DNA of 52,510 nucleotides, counting the filler, from Basidioascus undulatus (lineage: Eukaryota), in NCBI GenBank assembly GCA_000826855.1. It is 4 parts of 4 records of this genome, joined end to end, with 100 filler letters (N's around TTAATTAATTAA, not from the genome) between each part and the next. Parts side by side here need not be neighbours in the genome. Positions count along the whole stretch, not along the records: positions 1 to 13,076 come from JTLS01000846.1; 3 more parts are not named here. The stretch is one strand, 5' to 3'. Shown piece by piece: positions 1-39,497 of this stretch. Under the pieces are notes generated by a model, which made no database searches, was not told the DNA's origin, and saw only the letters and a program-made list of their open reading frames with translations. The number at the start of each line of letters is the position of its first letter. Within the stretch, counting starts at the first letter, position 1. The position numbers and the translations under genes were made by a program.

Positions 1-53
1 CAAAGGGAAGGGGCTGGGCCTGGGGCTCATCGGACCGGGGAGTGCCTGAGGGA

Positions 54-1583
54 CTAACCAAGCCATACCGAGCCATCGAGGCCTCCGATACCCTGGTCCA
101 CGTTACTGATGTCCGAGTACCGGGACCAACGGAGAGACGAAACGGCGCCCATAAGGATGAAGAAAAGAAGGGGATATTCCGTCTCATCCCGCGTCGTCTC
201 TAGAGGGGCAGTATACACCGACCTTTGACCACCCTCTACGTGGGGCCCCGCTCCCCGGCACCACCACCAGTACCAGGCATCTATAGAGCTGGCGTCGATG
301 GTAGACACCCAGGGCGCGATGTTCCTCGCCAAAGAGCCCACGAGGCCTCGGCGGGCAGCGCACAGACTGGTGAGTTCGGAGAGGTACGGGCTGGGGGTTG
401 GGGCCTCCGGGCTACCGGGCACCCTCACCCCCCATGCATGGGTACGGGTAAACCCCATCAGTGCCTCGACAGCCTCTGTAGTAAGCTGGGCGTGCCCCAG
501 GTCCGAGCAACAGCGCGCCACCAGGTAGGCGTTCACTACCCTCGAGTGGGGGTCAAGGGTACCCAAGAACTCCATCACCCTCTTCGCATTGCCCTCGGCG
601 AGCACCCCATAGAGGCCCAGGTAGGTGTCGTACAGCTCTCGGCCCCCCGCGGCCGGGGCCTGGGGCCTATCTCCCGGAACTATGCGCTGGCCCAGCACCA
701 AGGTAATGTCCTTCTCGAAGGAGGCAACTGCATCGCCTCGCGCCGCGAACAGAACTGCCCTCGGGACCACCCCGGGGCTGCCTATGTACTCGAACTTGCG
801 GGCCATCTGTGCAACAAAGACCTGAGGGTACTCCCGGCACCAGGCAGGCAGCTGGGACACGGTATGGTACACGTGTGAGGTAAACGCCCGGCAGCCGTCG
901 AGCGGCGCCCCGCTCCCTTCGCTCGCTGCACGTCGGTAGAGCCTCTGTGCCGAGGGCCCCATAGGTCTGTACCTTGCCACGGTCCCTATTGCGCCGTGCT
1001 GAGTCGACTCTATGCTGGACTCACCCGTCAGCAAGAACCTGCCCCGCACGGGATCAAAGTCCACGAAGTCCATACCGTCGTGGACGGCAGCGATCACCAG
1101 TGCCCGTACGGAAATCCGCGCGAGCACGGTCGGTAGTTCGGACGGAAAGGTATCCATGGACGCGGAGGACCAGTCTAGAGTCAGGTAGGAGTCTGCGCCC
1201 GTAGCTGCTGCGGACTGCGCAAGGGTGTACCAGGGCGCCACCTTACGCGACACTTTGGCGTCCCCCCGTAGCCTCCCGGTCAGGCCAGAGCCGTCGGGAG
1301 ACTGTCCGGTGGTGGCTATCTGTGGGACGTCGTACTTGATCTCGAAGCGGAACCCCAGCCTCAGCCTCCTCCACCCCGACCTCCTTGCCTTACGGCGGAA
1401 GCCTAGCATACCAGTGTCGACCCCGTCGAACTGCAAGCTACAATATACGCTTTCGTCACACTTTCTCAGGTCGGCCGAGGAGGAGAAGAGGCTCTGGGCT
1501 AGCTGCGCCACGGCTATGATGAAAGCGACGCCGGCCAGGACCGCAGCCGCTACGGTACCCGCCGTGGATGGATCCATTCCCAT
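54..1583 (-). CDS. Modin/MOD-A-like protein with N-terminal transmembrane helix (~509 aa)
   Basis: N-terminus AVLAGVAFIIAVAQLAQSLFSSSADLRKC..SV, then FRFEIKYDVPQI and SMDTFPSELPTVLARISV...GMDFVDFDP...GTVARY, match my recollection of the fungal modin family pattern (LQQY.A...R.C..SV / FRFE....P / SWD.MP.....P.A). Start set at the first ATG (1583; alternative 1577). Confidence 0.65.
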   Translation of the reverse strand: MGMDPSTAGTVAAAVLAGVAFIIAVAQLAQSLFSSSADLRKCDESVYCSLQFDGVDTGMLGFRRKARRSGWRRLRLGFRFEIKYDVPQIATTGQSPDGSGLTGRLRGDAKVSRKVAPWYTLAQSAAATGADSYLTLDWSSASMDTFPSELPTVLARISVRALVIAAVHDGMDFVDFDPVRGRFLLTGESSIESTQHGAIGTVARYRPMGPSAQRLYRRAASEGSGAPLDGCRAFTSHVYHTVSQLPAWCREYPQVFVAQMARKFEYIGSPGVVPRAVLFAARGDAVASFEKDITLVLGQRIVPGDRPQAPAAGGRELYDTYLGLYGVLAEGNAKRVMEFLGTLDPHSRVVNAYLVARCCSDLGHAQLTTEAVEALMGFTRTHAWGVRVPGSPEAPTPSPYLSELTSLCAARRGLVGSLARNIAPWVSTIDASSIDAWYWWWCRGAGPHVEGGQRSVYTAPLETTRDETEYPLLFFILMGAVSSLRWSRYSDISNVDQGIGGLDGSVWLG

Positions 1584-1600
1584 CTTTGCCGGTGCACTCG

Positions 1601-1614
1601 CAACTCCAGCGTTG
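1601..1614. promoter_or_regulatory. CAAC-N6-GTTG palindrome upstream of the Modin-like gene
   Basis: caactccagcgttg, 17 nt from ATG 1583; the same motif recurs before other genes of the element. Confidence 0.55.
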
Positions 1615-1687
1615 GTGCTCCGGGGGTGCGGCTTCGTTCCGGGGCGGCGCACGGCAAGGCCGGGGCACAAACGGCAGAGCAATTCTC

Positions 1688-1699
1688 CAACTGCGGTTG
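1688..1699. promoter_or_regulatory. CAAC-N4-GTTG palindrome upstream of the kinase gene
   Basis: caactgcggttg followed by ctggcac, 20 nt before ATG 1720. Confidence 0.55.
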
Positions 1700-1719
1700 C
1701 TGGCACTACACTGGACGCA

Positions 1720-2574
1720 ATGGATGAGTTTAAATACTCGAAAGGCGGCCGGTGGCTCTATACTGACGCAGAGGCGTACCTCTGGCACGGCGGGTGCTAC
1801 GTGAGGTTCGTCTACAAGCCGGGGACCTTGGCTGCCGATGTCCTTGCTTTCAGGAAGGACCTCCCCGAGTACGGCCACAGCCTCCTGATAGACGGGAATG
1901 ATGTCACACGCATAGACTACGAAGAGCCGCGAGAGCCCGGCAAGCCGGAGGACGACAGCGAGGACGTGTCCGAAGAGATGTTCGGACTTCCAGTCATCAA
2001 GACCGACGGGAAGGTCCACTACCTAAAGCGTTGCATGTACAAGAGCGAGATACAGAGCCTACTTAAGGTAAAGGGAGGTCCATCTGTGATAGAGCTACTG
2101 GGGCGTACGGAGGACATGAGGCTCGTCTTCCCTAAGTACACGACCGACCTCTTTGAGTACGTACTGAAGCACAGGGACACGGACTTCCGGCAGCACGCAA
2201 CATGGCTACTGCAGATAATCTCGGGTCTCGAGTGGCTCCACTCACGTGGGGTGGTCCACAGGGACCTTGTGCTCAGGAACATAATGTACTCGGAACCTGT
2301 GGTGATAGCCGACCTCGAGTCTAAGCACACCTCGCTTGCCTGCAGGCCACCTGAGGTCTCCGCGGGCGCCGAGTTCAGCCCGGCTAGCGATGTCTACGCG
2401 CTGGGCTTCTGCGCATGGCAGATGGAGAGACGCAACTATCCGAGGCCGTTCGCGCCGGTGGAACTGGAGGGCCCACTCGCAGAGATCTTCTGTGCCTGCA
2501 GACGAGAGAAGCCTGAGGACAGGCCGACCCTCGAAGAGCTCACCGCCGCTCTTGAGCCGATGAGAAGCCCGTGA
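1720..2574 (+). CDS. Eukaryotic-type protein kinase (284 aa)
   Basis: HYLK (beta3 Lys), EIQSL (helix C), HRDLVLRN catalytic loop, IADLE (DFG equivalent), PPE, SDVYALG, RPTLEEL. First ATG at 1720. Confidence 0.88.
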   Translation: MDEFKYSKGGRWLYTDAEAYLWHGGCYVRFVYKPGTLAADVLAFRKDLPEYGHSLLIDGNDVTRIDYEEPREPGKPEDDSEDVSEEMFGLPVIKTDGKVHYLKRCMYKSEIQSLLKVKGGPSVIELLGRTEDMRLVFPKYTTDLFEYVLKHRDTDFRQHATWLLQIISGLEWLHSRGVVHRDLVLRNIMYSEPVVIADLESKHTSLACRPPEVSAGAEFSPASDVYALGFCAWQMERRNYPRPFAPVELEGPLAEIFCACRREKPEDRPTLEELTAALEPMRSP

Positions 2575-2633
2575 GAGGCGCGGGGTAGCCCTGGCCGGTA
2601 TGGCGCGCTGGACGGCGTTGCTGGAGGATGCCC

Positions 2634-2646
2634 AGTTTTGAAAACT
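2634..2646. terminator. Candidate bidirectional terminator AGTTTTGAAAACT
   Basis: Palindrome between the convergent kinase and candidate-SSB genes; the same TTTTGAAAA core lies at the RNAP/PolB junction. Confidence 0.3.
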
Positions 2647-2778
2647 ACGCTACAACACATGACTTAGGATTCATCCGTCTCATCCTGGACTCGATCAACT
2701 TCCTACGCGTTCTCTCGGATCTCCCAGACAGCGTGGCAGAGCTCTCCAGTGTAATCAGCGAGCTCTCGGAACGGGTGA

Positions 2779-3630
2779 TCAGTTTCCCCGGCCGGCAGCG
2801 GGGGCTTCATCCTCAAGCTCGGGCTCGTCCTCAAGCTCAGGCTCCTGGTGACCGGAGTCGGTGATACCTGCGAATGCGAGGACCTCGGCACTGGCAACGA
2901 GACGGCGACTGGCACCAGCGCTCGACGCACCCTGGTTGGGGGCATCGGGACCCTTCACATCCGAAGTACCCGTGAGAAGCGCGGAGTTGAGGGTGAAGCT
3001 GAAAGTCCAGTCTCCCTCGTTAGTGCCAGAGACAGGCTCACCAGTGCACTTCACCCGGATCTCACTGAGAATGGCACAGACCAAGCTCTTCCCGTCCGCA
3101 TTAACAAGCACGTCGCGGAGCTTAATGTTGTACACGTCACCCTGGGAGTTGATAGTGCTCCACGTGCACTCGGTAGGGATCGCACCCTGACGGGCGGCGG
3201 GACGCTTGAGAGTGATGTTGACCCACGCGTACCCCTCCTTCTGCTGGACCCTAGGGTGAGTGAGGTTCACGCCACGGGCCTTCACCTTCTCGGTAAGGGC
3301 GTTCCAAGTCTTGAGAGGGAAGCCGGCGGTGAAGTAAGTGTCACCGTACGTAGCGTTGAGACGCTCACGGTTCTGCACGACGATGTCCGTGAAGAGAGAG
3401 CGGGGGAGTACGACATTGCCAGGGCACACTTGGTCAACCTTCGCGACGTGGGTGTGGAGAGGCGCCTTCGAACGCGCGATCTCCAGGTTACCCACGGCAC
3501 CGTCCAGCCTCCTCATCTCACCGACGTGGTAGTTGAACTGACGGGCCCTGTCAGGAGTGATGAACGCAGGCTCCTGAACCTCAAGCTCACCACTCTCGTT
3601 ACGGCGCTGGTACTGGACTTCGGCAGACAT
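2779..3630 (-). CDS. Hypothetical 283-aa protein; candidate single-stranded DNA-binding protein
   Basis: Clean ATG ORF with strong codon bias (antisense frame also open), a beta-rich-looking core and an acidic tail (EPELEDEPELEDE), next to the helicase. SSB function is inference only. Confidence 0.7.
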   Translation of the reverse strand: MSAEVQYQRRNESGELEVQEPAFITPDRARQFNYHVGEMRRLDGAVGNLEIARSKAPLHTHVAKVDQVCPGNVVLPRSLFTDIVVQNRERLNATYGDTYFTAGFPLKTWNALTEKVKARGVNLTHPRVQQKEGYAWVNITLKRPAARQGAIPTECTWSTINSQGDVYNIKLRDVLVNADGKSLVCAILSEIRVKCTGEPVSGTNEGDWTFSFTLNSALLTGTSDVKGPDAPNQGASSAGASRRLVASAEVLAFAGITDSGHQEPELEDEPELEDEAPAAGRGN

Positions 3631-3664
3631 GATAAGTTATTGCTATACTTCAGAGTGAGTATCG

Positions 3665-3678
3665 CAACGGTCACGTTG
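3665..3678. promoter_or_regulatory. CAAC-N6-GTTG palindrome upstream of the candidate SSB gene
   Basis: caacggtcacgttg in the 65-nt intergenic gap, 34 nt from ATG 3630. Confidence 0.55.
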
Positions 3679-3695
3679 GGCTCACGTCCTGAGTT

Positions 3696-5096
3696 TTAGA
3701 AGGATCCGGGGGAAGGGCGATTGGGGCGCAAATACTTTATGAAGCGGAATCCGGTATTACCCATAGCCTCTACGGTAGTCGGGGACATTAAGGAAGCGAG
3801 GTGCCCTAGCCTGTCGAGGGGCATGCGCGTGAGGGAGGAGACGATTACGCTGGCTTCGATCCAGTCTTCGGGTGACGACTCGTAGTCTACCACGACGTGT
3901 TCCATGATGAACGACCACTCGGCACCGAATATGGTCATGATCACGCTGACAGGCGCTATTACGGCACTGGGTGACCTCAGGCGCACGTATACGCAGAGGT
4001 AGATGAAGTCTAGCCAGTGTTCAGGACGATCGGGCATGATGATACGGGGGAGTGCAGTAGCATTGACGTTCATGTGCACGACTATGGCACGCCGTATGAT
4101 GGCCTCCGAGGACCACTCCTCTACGGTTCTGCTGGAGGGTAATGAGTTGCTACCCATGACTACGGTACTGCTGATCGTAGCTGACGACGGGGGGATAGGT
4201 ACTGAGTCCCTACCCGTGACTGCCTTGATGAGGCCGAGGTTGACGTTGCTGCCAAGCTCTACGTCTCCGGACACCGCTAGTCTTGTGGAGGCCAGCGACT
4301 GGGCTACGTCGACACCCAGAGTCTTGGATGCCCTGGTAAACGCATCTGATGGAAGTGTACACGAGCAGCCTGCGAGGGCAGTCTGTAGGCATCTGATGAG
4401 AGTACTCTTGCCTGTGCCACCAGGGCCGTAGAGGATGATCATCCTTGCTTGGGATGCCGGGTCCAGTAGGCAGTTGCCCACGGACCAGAGGATGGTATCG
4501 AGTTGCGTCCTGTCAGGGAAGAGACGACTCAGGAAGTGGAGTACTACACTCGGGCTCTCCTTGATACTCCATCTCGGAAGGACGCTGGATATCCTAATGG
4601 GCATGATGGAAACCGACTCTACGCGCGCTTTGCCAGCGACCGATATTACAGTGGGCACGTTAATGAGGGGAGGGCATTGACTCGCTATCAGGCCATCCTC
4701 GCCGTCGAGTGCGACGCGCAGCCTCGTGTTGGATACGCAGATGCTCGGGGGTATTACCTCCACGGGGATTGCGAAGCTCTCGATGAGAGAGGAGTAGGGA
4801 CGCATGGCCGTAAGGTAATTGACTGTGGCACTGTCGGCCTCTACCACGGAGCATACGGTGACCTGTGCCTCCGGGGCACAGAGGGGAGCCCAGTGGTTGT
4901 GGCTCGGAAGATAAATTACTACTGTGCCTTGCACCTTGGCGACCATGCCCCTGCCCTTGTAGATTGATGTTATTCTCCCGAACTTCTCGGGTGCCCCGTA
5001 GGTACCCTCCACAGGGACCAGGTGGGACTCGTCCTCTATCGGGGTATGGGGCTGCTCATGTTGACTCGCCAGCGCAGCTTCGGCGAACGATCGCAT
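3696..5096 (-). CDS. Superfamily 3 (D5/P4-like) helicase with an uncharacterised N-terminal domain (~466 aa)
   Basis: Walker A IILYGPGGTGKST, degenerate Walker B LAVSGDVE, IKAVTGRD, motif C VMGSN, arginine finger AIIRR. ATG 5096 chosen because 5141 is GTG and ATG 5126 lies inside the promoter palindrome. Confidence 0.82.
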   Translation of the reverse strand: MRSFAEAALASQHEQPHTPIEDESHLVPVEGTYGAPEKFGRITSIYKGRGMVAKVQGTVVIYLPSHNHWAPLCAPEAQVTVCSVVEADSATVNYLTAMRPYSSLIESFAIPVEVIPPSICVSNTRLRVALDGEDGLIASQCPPLINVPTVISVAGKARVESVSIMPIRISSVLPRWSIKESPSVVLHFLSRLFPDRTQLDTILWSVGNCLLDPASQARMIILYGPGGTGKSTLIRCLQTALAGCSCTLPSDAFTRASKTLGVDVAQSLASTRLAVSGDVELGSNVNLGLIKAVTGRDSVPIPPSSATISSTVVMGSNSLPSSRTVEEWSSEAIIRRAIVVHMNVNATALPRIIMPDRPEHWLDFIYLCVYVRLRSPSAVIAPVSVIMTIFGAEWSFIMEHVVVDYESSPEDWIEASVIVSSLTRMPLDRLGHLASLMSPTTVEAMGNTGFRFIKYLRPNRPSPGSF

Positions 5097-5116
5097 GGCG
5101 CAAGGTAGTGGCACCG

Positions 5117-5130
5117 CAACGCGCATGTTG
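5117..5130. promoter_or_regulatory. CAAC-N6-GTTG palindrome, shared bidirectional site for the helicase and RNAP genes
   Basis: gtgg-caccg-CAACgcgcatGTTG-ccggtcg-ccac, centred between divergent ATGs 5096 and 5149 (20 and 18 nt away). Confidence 0.6.
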
Positions 5131-5148
5131 CCGGTCGCCACATCAACG

Positions 5149-6975
5149 ATGAGCCACGAGCCGCGACCCGTAGAGCTGACCAGGCTAGCTTACGATGGAG
5201 CACTTGCCATTGAGTGTTTCTCCGTGAAACGCTACAGACTCACAAAGGTGGACATGAGGAAGGTTGCTACAGTGAGAGTGTCGACACCCCAGGAGTACAT
5301 GGCGGGCTGCCCCATCCACGACAGGTGCGCAGGCCACTTTGCAAGGACTCCTACTGGGACTCTACTCATGCCCCACAGGTTCCCCGCCCTCGCAGGTAAT
5401 GCAGAGAACCGCTATGCCAGGCTTGCCTCTGACCTGATGGAAAAGAGGGGAGGAAGTGAAGCCTACAATCAGGGACTGCTGGGTATCATGATGACTAAGG
5501 GAGGGACCTTCAGATACAGTGTGCTCTCGGGGTCTGTAGATGGCAGTGCGCGGCTGGTAATAGCTCCATGTTGGGGACTCCTAAGGAACCAAGTGGCCCT
5601 CCCTCGCAGGGTGGCTGAGAACATGAAGTATCTGAAGCACACCGGGACGTCGGCCTCCCCTGACCACCCCGAGGGCTCGTACGAGGCTGTCAGTGTCCAG
5701 GAGGGAGACTACGCGATAGTGGTAAGGCCTCCATCCCTTACGTTCTCCAATGCACAGCCGATGGAGGTAGTGCTGTGGGACAACGAGTGCATGGGACTCT
5801 CGCCCCTCAACTGCAGTGAGTACCACGCGGACTTTGACGGCGACGAAATGCACGTGTATCCAATATCTTCGCCCCTCGCAGTCGAAGAGGCGCGTCAGTG
5901 GGTCCAGTTCGTCAGGCAGGAGAGAGATGATCCCTTCGCTAACGTCTACGCCTTACCCGCCGCTCGAGCGGCGGCCTCTACTTCGTTCGTGCCTGCGGAG
6001 GGGTGGCAGTCAGCGAGGGGAGAGCAGTTGCCTGCGTTTATGCCTAGTACCACGACAGACATGGCGGAAATGATGACAGGTGCGCCCCTACCGGACGGAT
6101 ACGCGGGTGCCCGTGTGAAACCATCCACATGTGAGATGTTTGCAGAACTCGCATCTACTGGCGGCCCCAGCATCGAAGACTTCTACGAGGAGTCACTCAG
6201 GGGGTTGGATGACATCATGTCACAACAACTCATGCAGGGCACCATAGGAGACATGTCAAGGCAGGCCAGGCTTGCCGCTTCGTGCGTGATAGGGCCCCGT
6301 GCCGACGGGTCCATAACGATGGCATCCTTCTCGTCGACTAAGAGCATAGGGAGCTCAGGAGTGCTTGAGGACTGTCTGCCGGGGTCACCCGCGATGGTAG
6401 CTGCCAGTGCACTATGCGGGGTAGCCCAGCAAGCCGCGTTGGACTCACACAGGGCACACAAGGAGAAGGCATCCAGGGAAGACCTCATCGCAGGCCTGTT
6501 CAAGGGGAGTGGCAAGTCCCTGCGTATACTTACAGGCTCGGACAGCAACGCGGAGTGGCAGATGCGTGTAGGGGACGTCTGGGTATCGTACGGACCCGTA
6601 CAGCGGCCTCTGACTTCCTCACGGACCCTGGGTGCGGTAGCTCCGAGTGAACTGGCTAGACTACCCCACCGTAGGGCTGCCGCGAGACTTGCCCTGCAGT
6701 ATCTGAGTGCCTACTATGGAGTGTCCCTAAGTGAAGCAGAGCTTTCCTCACTGGCCGCACTGCTTGCGTACGAGCCGTCGAGATCAGACACACCACCCAC
6801 GCACAAGGAAGGTATGGCGGCACGGGACATGAGGTGGTTAGCGACATTAGCAGTAGGGCACTTCAGTCTGATACGTGGCATGGCCAAGGATTCCAGGTCG
6901 GCGCGGTGGACTACCCCAGACACCATCTCGGAGGCTATGACATTTGCCTCCTTCTACCGGCTCCTCGGGTTTTGA
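5149..6975 (+). CDS. Miniature DNA-directed RNA polymerase largest-subunit (Rpb1/beta') homolog (~608 aa)
   Basis: Catalytic YHADFDGDEMHVY; KGGTFRYSVLSGSVDGSARLVIAP (~[22 protein letters not shown]); VVRPPSL (~NRQPTLH); CPIHDRCAGHF (clamp Zn site); bridge-helix-like EDFYEESLRGLDDIM...GDMSRQ; trigger-loop-like PGSPAMVAASALCGVAQQAALDSHR. Confidence 0.9.
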   Translation: MSHEPRPVELTRLAYDGALAIECFSVKRYRLTKVDMRKVATVRVSTPQEYMAGCPIHDRCAGHFARTPTGTLLMPHRFPALAGNAENRYARLASDLMEKRGGSEAYNQGLLGIMMTKGGTFRYSVLSGSVDGSARLVIAPCWGLLRNQVALPRRVAENMKYLKHTGTSASPDHPEGSYEAVSVQEGDYAIVVRPPSLTFSNAQPMEVVLWDNECMGLSPLNCSEYHADFDGDEMHVYPISSPLAVEEARQWVQFVRQERDDPFANVYALPAARAAASTSFVPAEGWQSARGEQLPAFMPSTTTDMAEMMTGAPLPDGYAGARVKPSTCEMFAELASTGGPSIEDFYEESLRGLDDIMSQQLMQGTIGDMSRQARLAASCVIGPRADGSITMASFSSTKSIGSSGVLEDCLPGSPAMVAASALCGVAQQAALDSHRAHKEKASREDLIAGLFKGSGKSLRILTGSDSNAEWQMRVGDVWVSYGPVQRPLTSSRTLGAVAPSELARLPHRRAAARLALQYLSAYYGVSLSEAELSSLAALLAYEPSRSDTPPTHKEGMAARDMRWLATLAVGHFSLIRGMAKDSRSARWTTPDTISEAMTFASFYRLLGF

Positions 6976-6978
6976 AAA
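6970..6978. terminator. Candidate bidirectional terminator TTTTGAAAA at the RNAP/PolB convergent junction
   Basis: Overlaps the RNAP stop (6973-6975) and abuts the PolB stop (6979-6981). Confidence 0.3.
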
Positions 6979-9135
6979 TCACAGCCCATCTGAATAAGAT
7001 AAGATAGTGGCAAGGTTCCCAACACCTGCAGGGACGCAGAAGTGCTTGATCTCAGCCAGCGCTACTTCGAGGACGGCTGTCCTACTGTACGGAACAACCG
7101 CGTCAGGCTCTATGTTGTCCAGGTCCACCGACTGGCGCGTCCCATCCTTGGCAATGTACTGGTAGCACATGGTCCCCTCGATGCGGAGAACCTTCGAGAC
7201 CTGTGAGATGTTCAGCTTACCCCTGCGCGCCACGTGCTCTGCCTCTTCTATAATTGAAGCCACAGCTACTCTCTTGGCCAGGAGGGACTCCTTGCTGAGA
7301 AGTACACTAAGGATGTCGCCCGCTACCTTCCTTGCGTAACCCACCCTGTCCTTGCGGTTGTACGAGATGCCCTTACGAACCTCCTTGCCATCTGAACGAA
7401 TGTACGCGTAATGTTTCTTGCCGAGGAGAAGCATGGATTCAATCGATGCCTCAACTTCCATGGCAGCACTCTTCATCCCTGCGAACTCCATGATACGCTT
7501 AAGAATACGGTTCGCGTCCGCTGCGTGAGCCATTGCCGAGCCTGCGTACCTCCTGTCCGTCACACTCGTTCTCTTTAGGAAGCATGAGTCAGTATCTCCA
7601 TATACGACCTCCAGACCGCACATGGAGAAGACGTACGCTGCGAGGGCGAGACTCCACCTTCCTGCTAGAGTAACGCATGAGGCCGCGTGAGGGCTGTAGA
7701 TGGGAGCATAGCGGAACCCGAGGGCCCCGTACATGCTGTTGGACAAGACCTTGATGGCGTTCGAATACGGGGGATTGCTGCGATGCTGGGCACGCAGCCT
7801 GGTGAGGTACTCCAGTGCTCTGGACATTACGGGAGACTCCAATCTACTGAGAGACACCACGTTGTCACCGATCGCCACGGTGGTCGCCGAGTCAGTCCAC
7901 GAGAGCCACCCCGTGCCCTGGCCCACCCCGCCTATGGGCGTCACTACTGCCGACTCTGGTGATATGCCCAGGTCGATCATGATGGTGGGGTACATGGACT
8001 TGAAGTCGACAAGTACGAGATCGCTATGCATGCCCCTTACCGGAGGGAGGACGAGACCACCCTCTATCTCCATCTCTATGTCGCATCTAGTCCAGTCCAT
8101 GGCAAGTCCCTGGGCGAAGCAGTAGGATGATATCGCACAGGCAGCCATCGTGCCAGTGACATACCTTGCCACGTCGAGCAGGCAGGAGCATGCGGCCACG
8201 CAGAGACCAACGAGTTCCCGCTCTACCCGTAGGTGATCCCAGATCTGTAGAGCGACGACGCAATCGTTGACGTTGTACTCCAGCATGTCCTCCATGTACC
8301 CCGGGTCTGACGCCTCGAGGGGCATGTGGGTCTTCGGGGCCACGTTACACACCTCCGCCACGGAACTGAGCTTCAGGGAGGGAAAGCGCGACCTGTGTAC
8401 CTTGTCCAAGTAGATGAAGAGATCTACATTGTTCACCCCTATGATGTCAAGGTAGAAGGAGTACACAGGGCCGCCCTTGGATCCGTTGTTAATGGGCACG
8501 AACTGGGACACTCTCAACCGGGGTGCGTGGTAGAGAAGACGTGAGTTGTCGAAGTTGTAACAGTTGTATCCGATGAGCCACGCAGGCATGTGGGTCTCCA
8601 TATCTCTGATGAACTCCTCCACGAGTAAGGTGGAGTCGTACACCCTCCGCGAATGGGGAGCCTTCGTAGGACCGCCCGTATACCACGATGCCTTGTGTCC
8701 ACAGCTGCACACCACTGACATGCAGAGTATCCTTGCGTGAGGAGGGGGCAGTCCACCCTTGTCCCTTGTCGACATTTCGGTCTCGATATCGTACGACGCT
8801 ACACACGTCTTGGGGGCCGGCCTGGGAGGAAACCCCAGACCCGGTTCTGCCGACCCTCCGATGACGATGCCCAGGCATGAAGCTTCCCTCATCGCCCTTA
8901 GTCTCGGAGAGCACTGCCATACCAGAGATGAAGGTCCCGCCTCTCCGTCAGCCTCAAGCCTGGGTATCACAGGAAGGTCCGATACTGAGCCGTCCTTAGA
9001 CACGTCAATCTCCTCCACGACATCGCCTGTATCGCCCGTAAACCTGACACGGAGATTGCCTGCGTCGTCCGAGCCCGTCCAGGAGATGTACGCTCCCTGC
9101 GATAGTTTGTGCCTCACGTGTGCGAGACCGCTCAT
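6979..9135 (-). CDS. Family B DNA polymerase with 3'-5' exonuclease, RNA-primed type (~718 aa)
   Basis: ExoI YDIET, ExoII GYNCYNFD, ExoIII YNVNDC, motif A DFKSMYPTIM, motif B KVLSNSMYG, motif C YGDTDS, KKHY. B-to-C spacing is short, with no evident TPR insert. First ATG at 9135. Confidence 0.95.
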   Translation of the reverse strand: MSGLAHVRHKLSQGAYISWTGSDDAGNLRVRFTGDTGDVVEEIDVSKDGSVSDLPVIPRLEADGEAGPSSLVWQCSPRLRAMREASCLGIVIGGSAEPGLGFPPRPAPKTCVASYDIETEMSTRDKGGLPPPHARILCMSVVCSCGHKASWYTGGPTKAPHSRRVYDSTLLVEEFIRDMETHMPAWLIGYNCYNFDNSRLLYHAPRLRVSQFVPINNGSKGGPVYSFYLDIIGVNNVDLFIYLDKVHRSRFPSLKLSSVAEVCNVAPKTHMPLEASDPGYMEDMLEYNVNDCVVALQIWDHLRVERELVGLCVAACSCLLDVARYVTGTMAACAISSYCFAQGLAMDWTRCDIEMEIEGGLVLPPVRGMHSDLVLVDFKSMYPTIMIDLGISPESAVVTPIGGVGQGTGWLSWTDSATTVAIGDNVVSLSRLESPVMSRALEYLTRLRAQHRSNPPYSNAIKVLSNSMYGALGFRYAPIYSPHAASCVTLAGRWSLALAAYVFSMCGLEVVYGDTDSCFLKRTSVTDRRYAGSAMAHAADANRILKRIMEFAGMKSAAMEVEASIESMLLLGKKHYAYIRSDGKEVRKGISYNRKDRVGYARKVAGDILSVLLSKESLLAKRVAVASIIEEAEHVARRGKLNISQVSKVLRIEGTMCYQYIAKDGTRQSVDLDNIEPDAVVPYSRTAVLEVALAEIKHFCVPAGVGNLATILSYSDGL

Positions 9136-9142
9136 CTGTAGC

Positions 9143-9173
9143 GTGGAAGGACAACTGTCCGTTGGACTGCCAC
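9143..9173. promoter_or_regulatory. Symmetric GTGG-N5-CAAC-N5-GTTG-N5-CCAC bidirectional site between PolB and the first APH-like gene
   Basis: gtgg aagga caac tgtcc gttg gactg ccac in the 63-nt divergent intergenic gap. Confidence 0.6.
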
Positions 9174-9198
9174 TCACCAGCCGCGCCAGCCACTCGCC

Positions 9199-9945
9199 AT
9201 GCCCGATTCGACAGACCGCAGGCCGCGTGAGGAAGGATGCGTCGGTATCACGCACGAGAAGAAGTACTACGAGATAGACGTACACGGCACGAAGACCTTC
9301 GTCAAGCGCTCGTTAAGGCCAGAGGAATGGATGACCAATAGAGCTGGGAGGGTGATCATCCCCGACATCTGTATCCAGCGCTTGCGTAACGAGGCCGCGG
9401 CCATCCAATACATCAAGGAGAACACAGACATTCCGGTGCCTACAGTAAGGTGTGCATTCGAGGACGACAGGGCCTTCTACCTCATCACCGACTTCGTGGA
9501 GGGCGTTCGCCTTTGTGACCTTCCAGAGGAACAGAAGCCTTCTGTCATGGCAGAGGTAGAGAAACACCTGGAAACCCTGCGAAACCTCAAGTCCGGCAAG
9601 ATGGGGGGCCTTGCGGGTGATTGCTGCTTTCCATGGAGGATAGCTCGGCATCTGACGACACCCTTTCCCCCTAAGTACCGCGACAGTGAGGGGGAGGATT
9701 ACGTTTTCTGCCACGGCGATCTCTCGCAGCACAACGTCATAGTGGACCCCGAGACTCTGAAGATAAGGGCGATCGTAGACTGGGAGTATGCGGGCTTCTA
9801 CCCCCGCCAGATGGAGGGCCTCTTCTACAAGCGGGTCGGCCCCTCTGATGCCGTGGCCGACGAAGTGAGCGATGTACCCGAGATCCTGGCGCTACTTACC
9901 GACCTAGAGGTCAGGAGGACTCCGGTAAAGAAACAACAGAGTTGA
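9199..9945 (+). CDS. APH/choline-kinase-like phosphotransferase, fungal type (248 aa)
   Basis: TFVKRS, RLRNEAAAIQYIKENTDIPVP, Brenner motif CHGDLSQHNVIVD, IVDWEYAGFYP. Confidence 0.9.
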   Translation: MPDSTDRRPREEGCVGITHEKKYYEIDVHGTKTFVKRSLRPEEWMTNRAGRVIIPDICIQRLRNEAAAIQYIKENTDIPVPTVRCAFEDDRAFYLITDFVEGVRLCDLPEEQKPSVMAEVEKHLETLRNLKSGKMGGLAGDCCFPWRIARHLTTPFPPKYRDSEGEDYVFCHGDLSQHNVIVDPETLKIRAIVDWEYAGFYPRQMEGLFYKRVGPSDAVADEVSDVPEILALLTDLEVRRTPVKKQQS

Positions 9946-9971
9946 GACGCCATCGTTCTCCTCCTGGCCCA

Positions 9972-10133
9972 ATGTCCGTCCTTGCACGCTTCCTCCACAC
10001 TCTATTCGGCGCGAGGGTCGCGATCCCCAGCGGCCTCGTTCTTCACCCCTCTACCGTGGTGCGCTGCTCCACCTGTGGCGTCACTGTTTCGAGCACTCAG
10101 TCTGTCTGTCACAGCTGTGGCAACGCTCCGTAG
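9972..10133 (+). CDS. Small Zn-ribbon protein (53 aa)
   Basis: MSVLARF...RCSTCGVTVSSTQSVCHSCGNAP contains CxxC-x10-CxxC; preceded by CAAC-aga-GTTG at 9934-9944. Confidence 0.55.
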   Translation: MSVLARFLHTLFGARVAIPSGLVLHPSTVVRCSTCGVTVSSTQSVCHSCGNAP

Positions 10134-10157
10134 GCACGCACCACCCACCCCCACCCC

Positions 10158-10277
10158 GCCCCCTGTAGCACCCTAATCTCCTGTGCCACCACGTAGTCTG
10201 TTTGTTGTTGTTGCTGAGTGTCTGTTGGCATGTTACCCCTGTATTCGCCATACCCTAACCCCGCTACATACCCTCCC
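10158..10277 (+). repeat. Diverged 120-bp non-coding direct repeat, copy 1
   Basis: Begins with the exact 16-mer gccccctgtagcaccc and shares the tgttgttg, catgtt(a/g)ccc and cccta blocks with 12948-13067. Confidence 0.7.
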
Positions 10278-10311
10278 CAAAACCCTGCCGATCACAGGGC
10301 TGCACGCAAGG

Positions 10312-10332
10312 CAACAGGAGTTGAGCGGCCAC
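10312..10332. promoter_or_regulatory. CAAC-N4-GTTG-N5-CCAC upstream of the tandem APH ORF
   Basis: caac agga gttg agcgg ccac; the palindrome ends 25 nt before ATG 10349. Confidence 0.55.
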
Positions 10333-10348
10333 TCAGTAGGCAGCCAAC

Positions 10349-12823
10349 ATGTGTGACACGTGGACTGTGAAAGTTCCCCTTTACGACGACGCGGGCCTGC
10401 CCTTCGACATCACGGGTCTCCTTGTCGACACCGCTGATGGGCCTGTACTCGTCGTAAGGAGGCCTGGACTGACGGGCGCCCCGGGGCCTGCCGATGCGAC
10501 GACACTTAGGAAGCTGACTGAAATCCAGAGTATAGGCAAGCTGGTCCTTAAGGGTAAGCTCAAGCAGGATGTGGATGGGGTGCTGGCTACGTCGAACGAC
10601 CTCATCGCTAAGTTCTCAGGGAGTTGGACGTACGAGGCCTCGCTAGACCACTGGGACTCCGTGGCACTTGCGCTCCGGAGCAAAAGCATGATGCCGCCCG
10701 GGATGCTAGCACCCCCCAGGTGGCTGATCGACAGGTTCTTTCCCTGCCAGGCCGCCAGCTTTGAGGTGCTCCAGGACAACCCCGACACGTGTACCGGCCT
10801 GGTCTCTACAACGCTAGGCAGCAAGTACATCCTCCGTCTTGCCAGAGGTCGGGATAACGTGGAGCGTGCCCTCGCTACCGAGGCCCTGATGAGCCTGGCG
10901 CGTACCAAGGTGCCTGTCCCCAGAACAATAGACAGCTTCTGTTGGGAGGAGGACGGCAAGCCCCTCTGTGCGACAGTCGTTGAGTATGTCTACGGCTCCA
11001 CTCTCGAAGACGAGTGGGAGGAGCTCACCAGGGACGAGAAGCTATCGTACGTTGACCAGATCGTGGAGCTACTCGCCGGCCTCCATACGCTGAAGAGCGA
11101 CAGGCTTGCCCCCAACGACCCAAGGACCACGAGCGCCCTGGGCTTCCGCGAGGGTGACCCGCGCTGCTTCCCGGACACCAGGACGTGGCTGAAGGCCCTT
11201 GTTGAGTCATACTGGGGCAGCGAAGCTCCTCCCGCTGGGATCAGGGAGCAGCTGGAGGCCCTCGGTGCGCCGGAGCACCCCTACGTTCTGTGTCACAACG
11301 ACATGGAGCCTCGTAACATAATGGTGCGTGGTGGTAAGGTGGTGTCCATCATAGACTGGGAGTTCGCCGGCTACCAGCCTTTTATCTACGAGTGGGTGGT
11401 ACCTAGCACGGGGCTGGGCACAAGCTGCATCAACTACGAGTGGCACGTCATGTTCAGGCAGGCCGCTGCGAAACTTCTTCCGCGCGAAGACCCAGTTATG
11501 GAGCGGCTGATCCTTGACATCTTTAACGGGCTCTGGAACACCGTGTGGAAGAGGAGAAAGGTAGCCGGGTTCCGGCTGGCCTTCATGGCTAAGCACGGCG
11601 TCGTCGAGGGTGACCTGTGGAGGCCTCCTACCGCCGCCGGATCTATAACTGAGATGGGCGCTACCCAGACGCAGCCGGCGGAAGGCACCCCGAGACCGTA
11701 CACAGTCGGGAGTACAACAGAGTTGAAAAAGCCACGCTCATCCTCGAGCGCTTCGTTGGCCTTATACCCAATCACCCCTGTAGCGCAGTGGTCAGCAACC
11801 ATGAACGCCTCCGAAGGTAACGCGGAGTACCCCCTGCCGACCAAGATACCCAACGTGGATAAGCTTCCGCCGTTCGGGACTACCGACGAGGAAAGGGCCA
11901 TTAGAATTGCCGAGCTCGACAGGAGGGATGCCTACGACCCTATTGCGTCAGGGGCGATACGGGAGATTTACAAGTGTTCTGAGCGTAAGGTCATTTCCAT
12001 AGACGGTCGCTTCGTACTCAAGACGGCATCCACCGTGAACCCTGCAGAGCAGGGCAGTATAGATATTGTCAGGGCGCGTACCACAGTACCGGTGCCTGAG
12101 ACTATAGAAAGGTGGTACAACCCCGAGGCACGCAAGCACTTTGTGCTTGACCGGCAGATCAAGGGGACGACTATGCTTGAGGCCATGAAGACCATGTCGG
12201 ACGCGGAGGTGGAGGCTGTGATGGAGCAGCTCAGAGGCTATCTCGCGAGCATCAGGTCCATTACCTCGGGGTCTCTGCACGTGGCTGGGAGCACGCTGCT
12301 GCTTGACTACCACCTGTCCCACGACTACCTTGTCTTTACGGGCGACGATCAGTGCCACGCGTTCATAAACCAACTAATGCTCTCGGGGAAGGTCGACCTT
12401 CGGTCTCGCAAGGCAGCCGTGGTTAGAGCGTTGCATGACAAGCACCTGGAAAGGTACCCCGAGGACAGGACCACCTTCGTCATGACCCACGGGGACCTGG
12501 GCCCTTATAATGTCATGGTGGACGGCGGCGCTGTAGCCTGTGTCATTGACTGGGAAACGTCTGGGTTTATGCCGGCCTATTGGGAGAGGATAAAGTCGAT
12601 GACCAGCGGGGACCAATCGCGCGTGTGGAAGGTATCTTTGAGCAAGGGACTCCCTCCCTGCCCTGAGATGGAAGCCGCCACCAAACTAATGCGGGAGCAC
12701 ATCCCTCTCGGCGTGCTCAGCGACGAGGGCCAGCAGTGTTACATCTCTGCGGCTCTCCTCGTTTACGGAGAAGAGACCAACCCGGTCGGGGACGCACCAA
12801 ACGTTCATTGCAATGAAGCTTAG
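10349..12823 (+). CDS. Tandem double APH-like phosphotransferase (824 aa; possibly two genes, the second starting at ATG 11801)
   Basis: Domain 1: TEALMSLARTKVPVP, CHNDMEPRNIMV, IIDWEFAG. Domain 2: VRARTTVPVP, THGDLGPYNVMV, VIDWETSGFMPAYWE. A low-complexity linker separates them. Confidence 0.88.
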   Translation: MCDTWTVKVPLYDDAGLPFDITGLLVDTADGPVLVVRRPGLTGAPGPADATTLRKLTEIQSIGKLVLKGKLKQDVDGVLATSNDLIAKFSGSWTYEASLDHWDSVALALRSKSMMPPGMLAPPRWLIDRFFPCQAASFEVLQDNPDTCTGLVSTTLGSKYILRLARGRDNVERALATEALMSLARTKVPVPRTIDSFCWEEDGKPLCATVVEYVYGSTLEDEWEELTRDEKLSYVDQIVELLAGLHTLKSDRLAPNDPRTTSALGFREGDPRCFPDTRTWLKALVESYWGSEAPPAGIREQLEALGAPEHPYVLCHNDMEPRNIMVRGGKVVSIIDWEFAGYQPFIYEWVVPSTGLGTSCINYEWHVMFRQAAAKLLPREDPVMERLILDIFNGLWNTVWKRRKVAGFRLAFMAKHGVVEGDLWRPPTAAGSITEMGATQTQPAEGTPRPYTVGSTTELKKPRSSSSASLALYPITPVAQWSATMNASEGNAEYPLPTKIPNVDKLPPFGTTDEERAIRIAELDRRDAYDPIASGAIREIYKCSERKVISIDGRFVLKTASTVNPAEQGSIDIVRARTTVPVPETIERWYNPEARKHFVLDRQIKGTTMLEAMKTMSDAEVEAVMEQLRGYLASIRSITSGSLHVAGSTLLLDYHLSHDYLVFTGDDQCHAFINQLMLSGKVDLRSRKAAVVRALHDKHLERYPEDRTTFVMTHGDLGPYNVMVDGGAVACVIDWETSGFMPAYWERIKSMTSGDQSRVWKVSLSKGLPPCPEMEAATKLMREHIPLGVLSDEGQQCYISAALLVYGEETNPVGDAPNVHCNEA

Positions 12824-12924
12824 CGTTACCTCCCTCATCAATGCCTGGAACTGTAAGTGTGGCACCAAACATGACGGGCACCACGGTATGTAGCAACTGT
12901 GGCGGACCTACCGCCGCCGGGTGA
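12813..12924 (+). pseudogene. Frameshifted small Zn-ribbon ORF (putative paralog of 9972-10133)
   Basis: MKLSVTSLINAWNCKCGT in one frame and NMTGTTVCSNCGGPTAAG* in the +1 frame; removing one A near 12867-12869 gives WNCKCGTNMTGTTVCSNCG. Confidence 0.4.
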
Positions 12925-12947
12925 GCAGCGGAGCGTAGCACCCTACG

Positions 12948-13067
12948 GCCCCCTGTAGCACCCCCAGTCTCCCCTGTACCACCATGCACCCCGTAATGTT
13001 GTTGAACGCCTGTATGACCATGTTGCCCAATACCCGTCTGCGCCCTAGCTCTGCTGCACGCCCACCC
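12948..13067 (+). repeat. Diverged 120-bp non-coding direct repeat, copy 2
   Basis: Same 2790-nt offset from copy 1 at both ends; exact gccccctgtagcaccc at 12948-12963. Confidence 0.7.
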
Positions 13068-13076
13068 ATTCAACTA

Positions 13077-13176
13077 NNNNNNNNNNNNNNNNNNNNNNNN
13101 NNNNNNNNNNNNNNNNNNNNTTAATTAATTAANNNNNNNNNNNNNNNNNNNNNNNNNNNNNNNNNNNNNNNNNNNN
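13077..13176. other. Artificial contig linker
   Basis: 100 nt of N with a central TTAATTAATTAA (stops in all six frames). Confidence 0.98.
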
Positions 13177-14047
13177 AACAGCGTCAGCGCGTTCCAGCCC
13201 AGCCTAAACCTAGCAGGACCCACCTTGCCTAACCGCCTCATCCTCCAGAATGTCGAAGTGGCTGAACTGAACGCCCTCGTCGCGCAAGAGCTTGACCGTC
13301 TGCCTGCTAAACCCGCACCGCGGCGCGTCCGGCTCACCCTTCATGAACACCATGACCTTGCTCTGGTTCATGATCTGACGGCAGCGCTCGTTCAGCTCCG
13401 CCTCGGACTCCTGCGCCTGCTGCGGGATGGACGCCGGCGGCGCGGCGGGTGCGGCGTTCGTCCGGGACTGCGCGGTGGTGGCGGCGGGGGAGCGAGAGTG
13501 TGTGGCGACGGATTGGGCGAGGGCGGAGGCATTCGCGCCGGAGATGCGCTCGAGGAGAGTGTGGCCCTTTAGGGACAAGGCGCGGTCAGCCCGGCTGCGG
13601 ATGCGGAGAAGAGCAGGATGGGACTCACTCGCAGCAGAACGAACGAAGGCACCGCCTCAACCTCGAACGTCTCCGAGATGTCCGGCAAAGACTCCGCCTC
13701 AATCTGAACACCCCAACGCAATCAGACACATTTCCGTCAGCCGACACTGTCTCGCCACCGCCGCCCTGCGGCGGCACATGGTGAACGACGGACGCACCTG
13801 CAGGAACAGAACAGTGGGGTATTTCGCCGCCAGCTCCTTCACCACCTCGTTCATTTGCGTGCACGGCGCAGCCCATGGCGCCCAGAAGTTGAGCACGGCA
13901 GGGCGCGACAGGTCGGCGTTCAGCAGAGCCTGGAAGTGCTCCGGCGAGGTAACTTCGACGCTGTACCCCACGCCCAAAGCATCAGTGAGATCGGTTCATA
14001 TATCCGAGTCATACCCAAAGCATAACGTACAGGTTCTGCGCAGACAT
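13177..14047 (-). CDS. GRX4: Monothiol glutaredoxin Grx3/4 (Trx + Grx domains), spliced, 3' end cut by the contig edge
   Basis: MSAQNL|VEVTSPEHFQ...NFWAPWAAPC Trx-like domain, then FMKGEPDAPRCGFSRQ and FDILEDEAVRQG; GT-AG introns. Confidence 0.92.
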
Positions 14048-14904
14048 GGCGTTATGAATTTCGGGAGGAGGTCTGTGACGACGGTGATAGCGGAGAAGGA
14101 AGGCGTGCGCGACTTGCGAGAGCGAGCTCGGCCAGCTGACGACGTCAAGTTGACTCAGCATCGTCTTAGCAGCCACTTTCAGGGCAACTTGTGTTTTCCA
14201 GCAGACGATAACACGGGTCGAGGAGAGTAACTGGGGAATCTCTTTAAATCAGTCAGAAACACAACTGAAAGGCATGGCGACATTATCCGATCACCCGCCC
14301 CGGCTTGGATTGGTAGCAGTCTCTTCGTCGCAGAAACAGCCTTAGAACAGAAGTATGAACACCATCCCGCACACCGAAAGGAGGTCTACATCGGGAGTAG
14401 ACTGAAAAAAGAACTGATTAAAGCCCCCATAGCTTCCTGTCCCGTCCTTGACGGATTATCTCAACTTTCCTGTCCTGACCCGATGCGCCCAGAGCGAAAG
14501 AGTAACGACCACAACAACCAGCGAAACAACAAGACTTCCGCCGCTGTAACGTTCACGATATCCTGGTGGTCAGCCACAGATTCAGACCTCTCAAGATATT
14601 CCGGGCTCACAAGATCAAAGCATGGTACTTCCACGCTGTCGCCGGCGTGATGCCGATGCGGGTGACCGCGATTGCCCAAGGCAGGCAGTATCCGAGATTC
14701 GAAACGAAAGACTGGTACAGATACCTTGTGATATGACGGCAGTCAGTTTCAAAACCAAGGGGCGGAAGGGAAGGGGTTTACGCACAGCGCGGGCGGGTAG
14801 ACAGCAGAATGGTGCACAGTTGAGTTGAAATGCCGTAGCAGATATAGCACTTCATTCGGGGACCAACCCAATCAGGCCGGGACTATGCACGAGGGCTAGG
14901 AGTA

Positions 14905-18319: not shown

Positions 18320-19782
18320 ATGCCCCCTCGCAAGCGCGTCCGTGCCGAGTCAGTCTCCTCCAACGGGTCCGCCGCCGCCGACGACACGCCGACAGACGCT
18401 GCCCCGCCGTCGGTATCACTGAACACGCCCCTGCTCGAGTCCTACACCTGGCATTCAGAGATACCCGAACAGATCTTGAACCCCCTCACGGAGATGCCGC
18501 TGCCGGAGGACGGGAGCGAGGAGAGCCCGGAGCAGCGCGAGGCGAGGGATGAGGAGCGGAGGGGAAAGAGGGTCATGCTGGGTGTCGACGAGGCTGGCAG
18601 AGGGCCGGTTCTCGGTGAGTCTTCGCGTTTGTTTCCTCCAAAGAGTATGTTGATTGAGAGGATCTTCAGGCCCGCTCGTGTATGGCATCGCGTATTGCCC
18701 CATCAACTTCCTCGAGAAGCTCAAGGAGATCGGCTTCGCAGGTATACTCGCCCTCCTCACAAATCAAACGCGCCACATGAGCTGATGTCCATCCCTCGTC
18801 CAGACTCCAAAACCCTCACCGCCGAGTCCCGATCCACGCTCCTCCGCACGTTCGCCGCGCACGCGCACGCCCTGGGATGGGCCGTCCGCGTCATGGCCCC
18901 GCAGGACATCAGCGCGGGCATGCTCAAGCGGCACCCGTACAACCTCAACGCGCAGTCCCACGACGCGACCATTTCGCTCATCCAGGATGTGATGGACAAG
19001 GGGATCGACCTTGCCGAAGTTCGCGACTCAGATTCATTAACCGTTGCGGGACTCTGGCTGACGATTGCGGTCGGCATGCAGGTCTATGTCGACACCGTCG
19101 GACCGGCACAGTCGTACCAGACCAAGCTCGAGGGCCGGTTCCCTGGCATCAGTTTCACTGTCGCGTCCAAGGCCGACTCGCTCTTCCCGATCGTCTCTGC
19201 CGCGTCCATCGCGGCCAAGGTGACGCGCGACACCATCGTCGAGGGCTGGACCTTCGGGGAAAGCGGAAGCGTCGGGAAGGTGGCGAAGGTGGCGGCCGCA
19301 GAGGCCGACACAGCTCCTACGAAGAAGAAAGTTAGAGACGATAACGGCGAGGGCGAGACGAAGGCGGACGGACCGGCGGAGAGTGTGAACGACGAGCTCG
19401 GCAGCGGGTACCCAGGAGGTACGCTCTTCCGCCGTTGCTTATTCCTCCCCACCTCCTCTGATATCAGATGTCTGGCAGACCCGCGCACGGTCGCTTGGCT
19501 CAAGAACCACTTCGACAACGTCTTTGGCTATCCGCAGGTGGCGCGCTTCAGCTGGGCGACGGTCAAAACCATTTTGGAGAAGAAGGGCGTCACGGCGACT
19601 TGGTGCGTCGGTTTCGCACCTGGGGCTTGGCGTAACGGGTGCAACCAAACTGACCCCATGGGTCTTCCATCAGGATCGACGAGCCTAAACCTCTCAGCCA
19701 ATATTTCAGCACTCAGCCTGCCAACGCGAAGCGGCCGGCTGCGCTGAAGGAGCTCGGGCTGGTATCTGTTTCAGACCTGTAG
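18320..19782 (+). CDS. RNH201: Ribonuclease H2 catalytic subunit A, spliced
   Basis: GVDEAGRGPVLG, DSKTL, YNLNAQSHD, VYVDTVG, KADSLFPIVSAASIAAKVTRD, GSGYP, RFSWATVK. Confidence 0.95.
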
Positions 19783-26239: not shown

Positions 26240-26339
26240 NNNNNNNNNNNNNNNNNNNNNNNNNNNNNNNNNNNNNNNNNNNNTTAATTAATTAANNNNN
26301 NNNNNNNNNNNNNNNNNNNNNNNNNNNNNNNNNNNNNNN
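26240..26339. other. Artificial contig linker
   Basis: 100 nt of N with a central TTAATTAATTAA. Confidence 0.98.
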
Positions 26340-39397: not shown

Positions 39398-39497
39398 NNN
39401 NNNNNNNNNNNNNNNNNNNNNNNNNNNNNNNNNNNNNNNNNTTAATTAATTAANNNNNNNNNNNNNNNNNNNNNNNNNNNNNNNNNNNNNNNNNNNN
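39398..39497. other. Artificial contig linker
   Basis: 100 nt of N with a central TTAATTAATTAA. Confidence 0.98.

Follow-up and report, generated by a model that had tools for sequence, protein, structure and literature searches.

A hypervariable, modin-like membrane protein gene on a virus-like DNA element in Basidioascus undulatus

Organization of the window and gene content of contig C2820

The window (the whole 52,510-nucleotide stretch of Basidioascus undulatus DNA analyzed here, filler included) consists of similar-sized contigs glued together by three artificial linkers; contigs C2819, C2820, and C2821 are 13095, 13076, and 13063 bases long, respectively. Window positions 1-13076 are one whole contig, C2820, which has a coding density of 91% and carries the 509-aa gene that is the subject of this analysis. 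The features of the window are as follows.

54..1583, minus strand: modin-like membrane protein gene, 509 aa, open from ATG to TAG
1479..1571, minus strand: predicted N-terminal transmembrane signal-anchor helix of this protein, residues about 5-35 (Kyte-Doolittle maximum 2.46; helix 5-46 in both structure models)
939..1583, minus strand: region homologous to the fungal "modin"-labelled family, residues 1-215 (helix, long beta-hairpin, helix and beta-sheet)
57..911, minus strand: mostly helical C-terminal part, residues 225-509, matching solely other element copies at 17-25% identity
1601..1614: palindromic motif CAAC-N6-GTTG, 31 nt before the ATG of the 509-aa gene
1688..1699: motif CAAC-N4-GTTG, before the divergent kinase gene
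1720..2574, plus strand: protein kinase gene (Pfam Pkinase, E 2e-13; start at 1720 set by the motif and a relic copy)
2779..3630, minus strand: 283-aa ORF with an acidic tail, no family match
3696..5097, minus strand: SF3/D5-type helicase (PHROG primase-helicase families, best E 5e-14; start at 5097 set by the motif)
5149..6975, plus strand: half-size RNA polymerase largest subunit (beta-prime/RPB1-like) with DFDGDE (Pfam E 8e-13, PDB alignment)
6979..9135, minus strand: family B DNA polymerase (PolB) of the RNA-primed type (PF00136 E 2e-29 versus PF03175 E 0.004; best PDB matches archaeal PolB and Pol alpha)
9199..9945, plus strand: APH-family kinase (Pfam)
10349..12823, plus strand: double APH-family kinase (Pfam; several relics stop matching at about 11600-11650)
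13077..13176, and likewise 26240-26339 and 39398-39497: artificial linker N44-TTAATTAATTAA-N44
18320-19747: host RNase H2 (Pfam)
51344-52453: host Prp18 (Pfam)

For the 283-aa ORF, a single-strand-binding role is a guess. Four of the decayed copies of the element found elsewhere in the assembly (referred to as relics) end their match at about 11602-11651, and the second APH domain (window 11600-13076) looks like another variable slot, at the opposite end of the contig.

Integration of the element beside host genes was considered and rejected, as the linkers join at least four unrelated contigs; because of this linker artifact, the intron-rich host genes past position 13076 are not real neighbors of the element. 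The host genes at window positions 13177-52510 are intron-dense and include a gene with several introns at about 13200-14050, presumably glutaredoxin-like. Pfam also gave a weak match to DUF6699. The first 78 bases of a host contig (C24:1-78) are identical to window positions 12788-12865, which may reflect either an insertion of very recent date or a join made during assembly.

The initial annotation had placed a motif of the element's own upstream of the 509-aa gene, and this is borne out: the CAAC-N6-GTTG copy at 1601-1614 belongs to an element-wide motif, CAAC-N4-6-GTTG, which serves 10 of the 13 genes with an upstream region at hand (in three divergent pairs, the two genes share one site). 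It has seven matches in the two element contigs (C2820 and C220, described below), all seven located 28-48 nt upstream of start codons, and two matches in 39 kb of host DNA, statistics that are optimistic because the motif was defined after inspecting the same upstream regions. As an outside check, it is present in a relic upstream of one further gene (1/1 looked at), and for the capping gene it is exact in 2/4. The motif upstream of the 509-aa gene is identical in two relics.

A second contig of the element

A search for a second RNA polymerase subunit led to contig C220 (9,904 bases; L064:1-9904), which encodes RPB2 (831 aa), a TFIIS-zinc-ribbon and capping enzyme (739 aa), a UDG-like protein (531 aa), and four ORFs without a family. 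We take the KxDG and methyltransferase-type motifs in its translation to be those of a capping enzyme. C220 agrees with C2820 in its TpA ratio (0.95 and 0.93, respectively; host DNA 0.60) and in its CpG ratio (0.84 and 0.85; host DNA 1.01). Further, in one relic, C2299, a modin-like allele is followed by an inverted repeat and then by the first C220 gene. Based on the shared composition, the shared motif, and this one relic that carries both, we infer that C2820 and C220 are parts of one element of about 23-27 kb. Taken this way, the element is intact and comprises at least 23 kb on two contigs.

In the relics, an inverted repeat lies beyond both ends of C220, and one relic has tandem units of about 115 nt. 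The repeat region of C2299 (L016:2400-3450), a candidate origin or terminal repeat, is an A+T-rich stretch that contains an inverted pair of 35 nt and a tandem array of four units, each about 115 nt long.

Depth and decayed copies of the element

Sequencing run X1 is probably the one from which the assembly was made. In it, pieces that match the element exactly have a depth of 452-642 and single diverged relic contigs a depth of 17-22, a roughly 25-fold ratio that is not to be read as a copy number. The element is intact and apparently multicopy, and a tandem chromosomal array is a possible source of the high depth. Run X2, from another study but possibly of the same strain, contains long pieces of the element with no substitutions and one 1-base insertion. 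Run X3 shares its sample with X2; in it, relic contigs have a depth of about 30-55, and 7 of 30 bins are uncovered, including the 509-aa gene, a hole that proves nothing. There is no RNA run among the sequencing runs listed as carrying the element.

DNA searches of the assembly gave at least 45 and at least 48 matches for C2820 and C220, respectively, mostly short and at 70-96% identity. The decay of the relics is transition-rich, with C to T changes highest before G (0.18 vs. 0.08-0.11), and so differs from the CpA bias of RIP. Together with the intron density of the host genes and the weak DUF6699 match, this pattern points to a probable basidiomycete host; a search with a basidiomycete mating-type marker gave no match anywhere and carries no information on this point.

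The presence of the gene in related elements was also looked for, and none came to light in IMG/VR (scanned with PolB, alignment A2, and RPB2), in plasmid records, or in metagenome loci. The metagenome scan gave two loci (L033 and L034) in which a full-size RPB1 lies in dense, large-virus-like gene arrays; these are distant kin only, and a modin-like profile had no match among their ORFs of at least 150 aa.

Anatomy of the 509-aa protein

The frame at 54-1583 on the minus strand is intact over its 509 codons and shows no sign of introns, in agreement with the initial annotation, which had called the gene intronless. This gene is the one gene of the element that was examined for a membrane anchor, and its product has a clear one; a hydrophobic N-terminal segment is also found in 87 of 91 rows of the fungal family discussed below. 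Residues 33-80 are basic (11 K/R vs. 5 D/E), and since this basic stretch follows the predicted N-terminal anchor helix, the charge pattern suggests that the body of the protein faces the cytosol. Proline makes up 5.3% of the protein, with four PxxP motifs.

A model of the N-terminal domain, built with 95 sequences, reached pLDDT 78.5 and pTM 0.68, and consists of a helix, a long beta-hairpin, and a module of a helix and a sheet. The full-length model has a pLDDT of 61, and its C-terminal half is helical and modelled poorly. At E 0.001, Foldseek returned no match in the PDB for the full and N-domain models or in a viral library for the N-domain model; the best fold-search Z scores were 6.7 (a generic helical bundle, full model) and 4.5 (N-domain), and such a null search is proof neither of a new fold nor of an absence of kin. 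A PDB sequence search with profile A3 matched low-complexity tails only. Pfam, PHROGs, and NCBIfam gave no family for the 509-aa protein (DUF7704 was below threshold, E 0.042) or for 21 members of alignment A1, no Pfam or NCBIfam model covers the N-domain, and an ESM Atlas search with residues 225-509 gave no usable match.

The composition of the gene is largely that of the element. Its GC3 is 0.74 (14 element genes range from 0.65 to 0.75), and its codon-level composition falls within, or borders on, the range seen in the other genes of the element. The TpA ratio is 1.23 in the 509-aa gene, 0.93 in the element, and 0.60 in host DNA.

Relationship to the modin-labelled fungal family

A phmmer search of 1.84 billion representative sequences gave 20 matches (E 1e-6 to 1e-3), with the best stretches all within residues 1-217 of the query. 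Among the 19 of these 20 clusters that were looked up, seven had organism names, and all seven are, as we take them to be, Pezizomycotina genera. One hit, P0012, has 99 relatives, at least four of which are labelled "Modin" or "modin protein"; an organism is named for 45 of the 99, and it belongs to Pezizomycotina in all 45, a count biased by the query, itself an ascomycete protein. Against a profile of 92 fungal relatives from which the query was excluded, the 509-aa protein scored 39.1 bits, and the best of 500 shuffles scored 3.2 (500 were run, 176 reported). BLASTP against two modin-labelled proteins gave E 3e-11 (24% identity over 237 columns) and 7e-6. In the ESM Atlas, a "Modin" cluster ranked third at 0.95, with the score flagged as weak and recognition of the query low. 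No homolog emerged from word-index searches, whether run with the protein or with alignment A1, whereas the full HMMER scan did find relatives.

The C-terminal part behaves differently. A family C-terminal profile (66 sequences) had no match to the 509-aa protein, and a profile-profile comparison of its C-terminal part with the family scored 19.1, which lies within the range of 60 shuffles (maximum 20.9), so that any link there would be very remote. The resemblance to the modin family proposed in the initial annotation is thus significant by profile search for residues 1-215 (39.1 bits, with shuffles at 3.2 or below), but does not extend to the C-terminal half. At family level, the modin resemblance is genuine, remote, and confined to residues 1-215.

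What the label implies is a separate matter. MOD-A of Podospora anserina, which affects non-allelic incompatibility and the formation of female organs, is the protein named modin (AAC25496; Barreau et al. 1998; PMC2275199, PMC1325252, PMC4350166), described as a proline-rich polypeptide with an SH3-binding motif (PMC2275199). Orthologs of MOD-A are reported from filamentous ascomycetes only; two basidiomycetes were tested and had none (PMC1325252). Residues 1-215 of the 509-aa protein match a Pezizomycotina family of which some members are labelled modin in UniRef and NCBI, and kinship with MOD-A itself is putative. With 5.3% proline and four PxxP motifs, the 509-aa protein lacks the proline richness described as the hallmark of MOD-A. 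The modin-labelled relatives are 822-1020 aa long with 4.6-7.3% proline, and carry the label by annotation transfer. Compared with MOD-A, the element protein further differs in having an unrelated C-terminal part, in being encoded without introns on a mobile element, and in being hypervariable. A literature search on "modin" found nothing relevant.

Hypervariability and long residence on the element

In its own genome, the element can be compared with its relics at the protein level, in a search that scores the best candidates only. Identities are 65-96% for PolB (8 matches), 66-87% for the helicase (5), and 62-94% for the 283-aa ORF (11), whereas for the 509-aa gene they are 23-73% (11 matches), and 23-56% where the match passes residue 60; the 73% match covers residues 1-55 only. 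Over a core of 41-58 aa, the window allele is 32-47% identical to the alleles of five relics, and pairwise identities among the six alleles (15 pairs) are 32-68%. Relic C2299 illustrates the contrast within one copy, with DNA identities of 84% over the 5' end of the gene and its upstream region and 90% over another element gene, but protein identities of 41-46% for the 509-aa gene. In two relics, DNA identity per 30 nucleotides falls from 25-30 upstream of the ATG to 19-25 in the first 50 codons and mostly 9-20 thereafter. Two relics have long open C-terminal frames with 17-25% identity and a similar motif at the end, and the diverged alleles share the same hydrophobic pattern. The high divergence could also come from relics of older, unrelated element lineages, or from relaxed selection.

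In a tree of 103 columns, from which redundant and short rows were omitted, six element-type alleles fall on one side of a branch (support 100/95) from 38 fungal rows; the tree is unrooted and has long branches that meet. It points to no donor lineage and establishes no direction of transfer. The initial annotation had described a captured gene, and it is indeed cargo of a virus- or plasmid-like element, but since its composition matches that of the element and its copies form one long-branched group, the gene is an old resident of the element and not a recent capture. An intron-bearing host donor at C190 was also considered and rejected, as the pieces there adjoin an APH relic and share the 5' DNA of the element allele. 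In relic C1554 (L017:1700-3509), a modin-like allele lies under the upstream region of the double-APH gene and is followed by a kinase and then an APH gene, an arrangement that suggests shuffling of cargo between slots.

Comparison with known elements

The element has a G+C content of about 60%, and described pGKL-type elements are A+T-rich. Like the virus-like elements of yeasts and early-diverging fungi (pGKL2-type helper plasmids; PMC13348850), it is a dsDNA replicon of small size that encodes a DNA polymerase, two subunits of an RNA polymerase, a capping enzyme, and a helicase, and further resembles them in its shared upstream motif, high depth, accessory cargo, and lack of a recognized capsid; the two-subunit RNA polymerase and capping enzyme are present if C220 is taken as part of the same element. 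However, pGKL-type elements are defined by a protein-primed pPolB (PMC13348850), and instead of a protein-primed PolB with a terminal protein, this element encodes the RNA-primed type (PF00136 at E 2e-29 vs. PF03175 at E 0.004). It also differs in its SF3/D5-type helicase and UDG-like gene, and the chitinase toxin cluster is absent. According to a 2026 paper, no dsDNA virus has been found so far in Dikarya, and the elements described there use protein-primed polymerases (PMC13348850).

The fungal Nucleocytoviricota (fundsalphaviruses and fundsbetaviruses, PMC7017919; Mycodnaviridae, PMC13533422) share with the element an RNA-primed PolB, a D5-type helicase, RPB1, RPB2, and a capping enzyme, as well as a TFIIS-type zinc ribbon, a UDG-like protein, and decayed endogenous copies. 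Unlike them, the element is far smaller (about 23-27 kb) and has miniature polymerase subunits. No double-jelly-roll capsid protein or packaging ATPase was recognized by Pfam or PHROGs among its 15 genes, five of which have no family, and the element may be incomplete. A search of full-text literature, which covers few subscription journals, gave no description of such an element. The 509-aa gene is a divergent variant of a poorly defined fungal family, located on an undescribed variant of fungal virus-like elements.

Possible roles of the 509-aa protein

The reading that we tentatively prefer, as plausible but short of probable, is that the 509-aa protein is a long-resident, diversifying membrane interface protein, which serves as a specificity determinant in a recognition conflict, on a self-replicating, self-transcribing dsDNA element. 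We infer the recognition conflict from the pattern of sequence divergence. The gene would be transcribed by the element's own RNA polymerase, and its product would be anchored in a host membrane by a single pass with the body in the cytosol, where it may either exclude rival element variants or evade a host non-self/cell-death sensor at hyphal fusion. A recognition conflict would favor new alleles, which in this proposal is the reason why only the 509-aa gene is so variable, and the protein would act as a polymorphic interface protein rather than as an extra working copy of MOD-A. The predicted fold has no informative match, and the mechanism does not follow from it.

The reading closest to the initial annotation, which had the gene modulating host allorecognition or cell death, is that of a captured MOD-A homolog that lets the element cross hyphal-fusion barriers by suppressing heterokaryon incompatibility, for instance by acting as a dominant-negative decoy. 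Family members do carry the modin label, and the anchor and N-domain are kept while the C-terminal part is different, as might be expected of a decoy. There are also precedents: a mycoreovirus, SsMYRV4, suppresses vegetative incompatibility and so shows that an intracellular parasite can lower the hyphal-fusion barrier (PMC5363999), and a HET-domain gene is reported on an Umbelopsis virus-like element (PMC13348850). SsMYRV4 is, however, an RNA virus that down-regulates G-protein, het, and ROS genes, and its abstract mentions no captured host gene (PMC5363999). More directly, it is the mutation of a mod gene that suppresses incompatibility (PMC4350166), so simple suppression is not what an additional functional copy should bring about. 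When the host assembly was searched with a member of the fungal family, only the element's own copies came back (four matches). With no host paralog in view, there is no target for a decoy to poison and no donor. The restriction of reported MOD-A orthologs to filamentous ascomycetes (0/2 basidiomycetes; PMC1325252) and the transferred label of the relatives, which have 822-1020 aa and 4.6-7.3% proline, also speak against it. Because the protein is not proline-rich and mod-A acts when mutated, a simple captured suppressor is unlikely, and we consider the decoy version improbable as well. What stands of the earlier idea is that the hypervariability fits some recognition conflict, and the protein may thus form an interface with the host or with rival elements.

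The membrane interface reading must also be weighed against roles in maintenance and transit of the element itself. One such role would be that of a toxin or an immunity protein in an addiction or killer module that maintains the element in the mycelium, with the adjoining kinases as partners. In its favor, the 509-aa gene lies back to back with a kinase gene, relics C1554 and C190 place its alleles beside kinase or APH pieces in varying arrangements, and the only other slot that varies is the second half of the double APH gene; fast-evolving toxin and immunity genes are reported on yeast virus-like elements (PMC13348850). We consider such a module improbable, as no toxin domain was recognized by Pfam, NCBIfam, or PHROGs, no chitinase-type carrier is present among the 15 genes of the two contigs, and the cellular family consists of widespread, long proteins of ordinary appearance. 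There is a similarly small chance that the product is a viral structural or transit membrane protein, acting in an envelope, as a replication-site anchor, or in cell-to-cell movement. Viral surface proteins are often the most variable, the 509-aa protein, the one examined for it, has a clear anchor, and the five ORFs without an assigned family could hide a capsid; but no capsid or packaging ATPase was recognized, the charge pattern favors a cytosolic body, and the relatives are cellular fungal proteins. Least of all would we expect a nearly neutral passenger drifting under weak selection. Its very high divergence and the low model confidence of its C-terminal half would be accounted for, but 509 codons remain intact on an element that is 91% coding, the promoter motif is kept (identical in two relics), and the diverged alleles keep their hydrophobic pattern, two of them along with long C-terminal frames and a similar end motif.

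A bolder form of the preferred interface reading, which we regard as rather doubtful, is that the element represents a new class of active extrachromosomal dsDNA replicon or virus of Dikarya, marked by an RNA-primed PolB, an SF3 helicase, a miniature RNA polymerase, and a capping enzyme, with a swappable membrane specificity cassette for passage of fusion barriers or exclusion of rivals. The modin-like domain would then have moved between elements and chromosomes across phyla, and the cellular "modin" family may be the target that the domain mimics, or may even descend from it.

For studying how a DNA parasite persists in hyphae, an element that is intact, present at high depth, and equipped with NCLDV-type genes for replication and transcription offers a living system. 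If any of its genes forms the interface with host or rival, the single hypervariable membrane gene is the one that first comes to mind. This gene also provides a compact handle on the modin-like domain, which has no Pfam model and no informative structural match, and whose name ties it to a long-unexplained modifier of incompatibility.

One observation from run X2 touches on where the element resides. In one contig of this run, 226 bases of the first APH gene (9450-9675) are skipped between a GT and an AG; the skipped region also has a branch-like site, CTGAC, and a pyrimidine tract. If X2 is RNA, the skip weakly hints at splicing and nuclear access, with a short side of only 26 letters.
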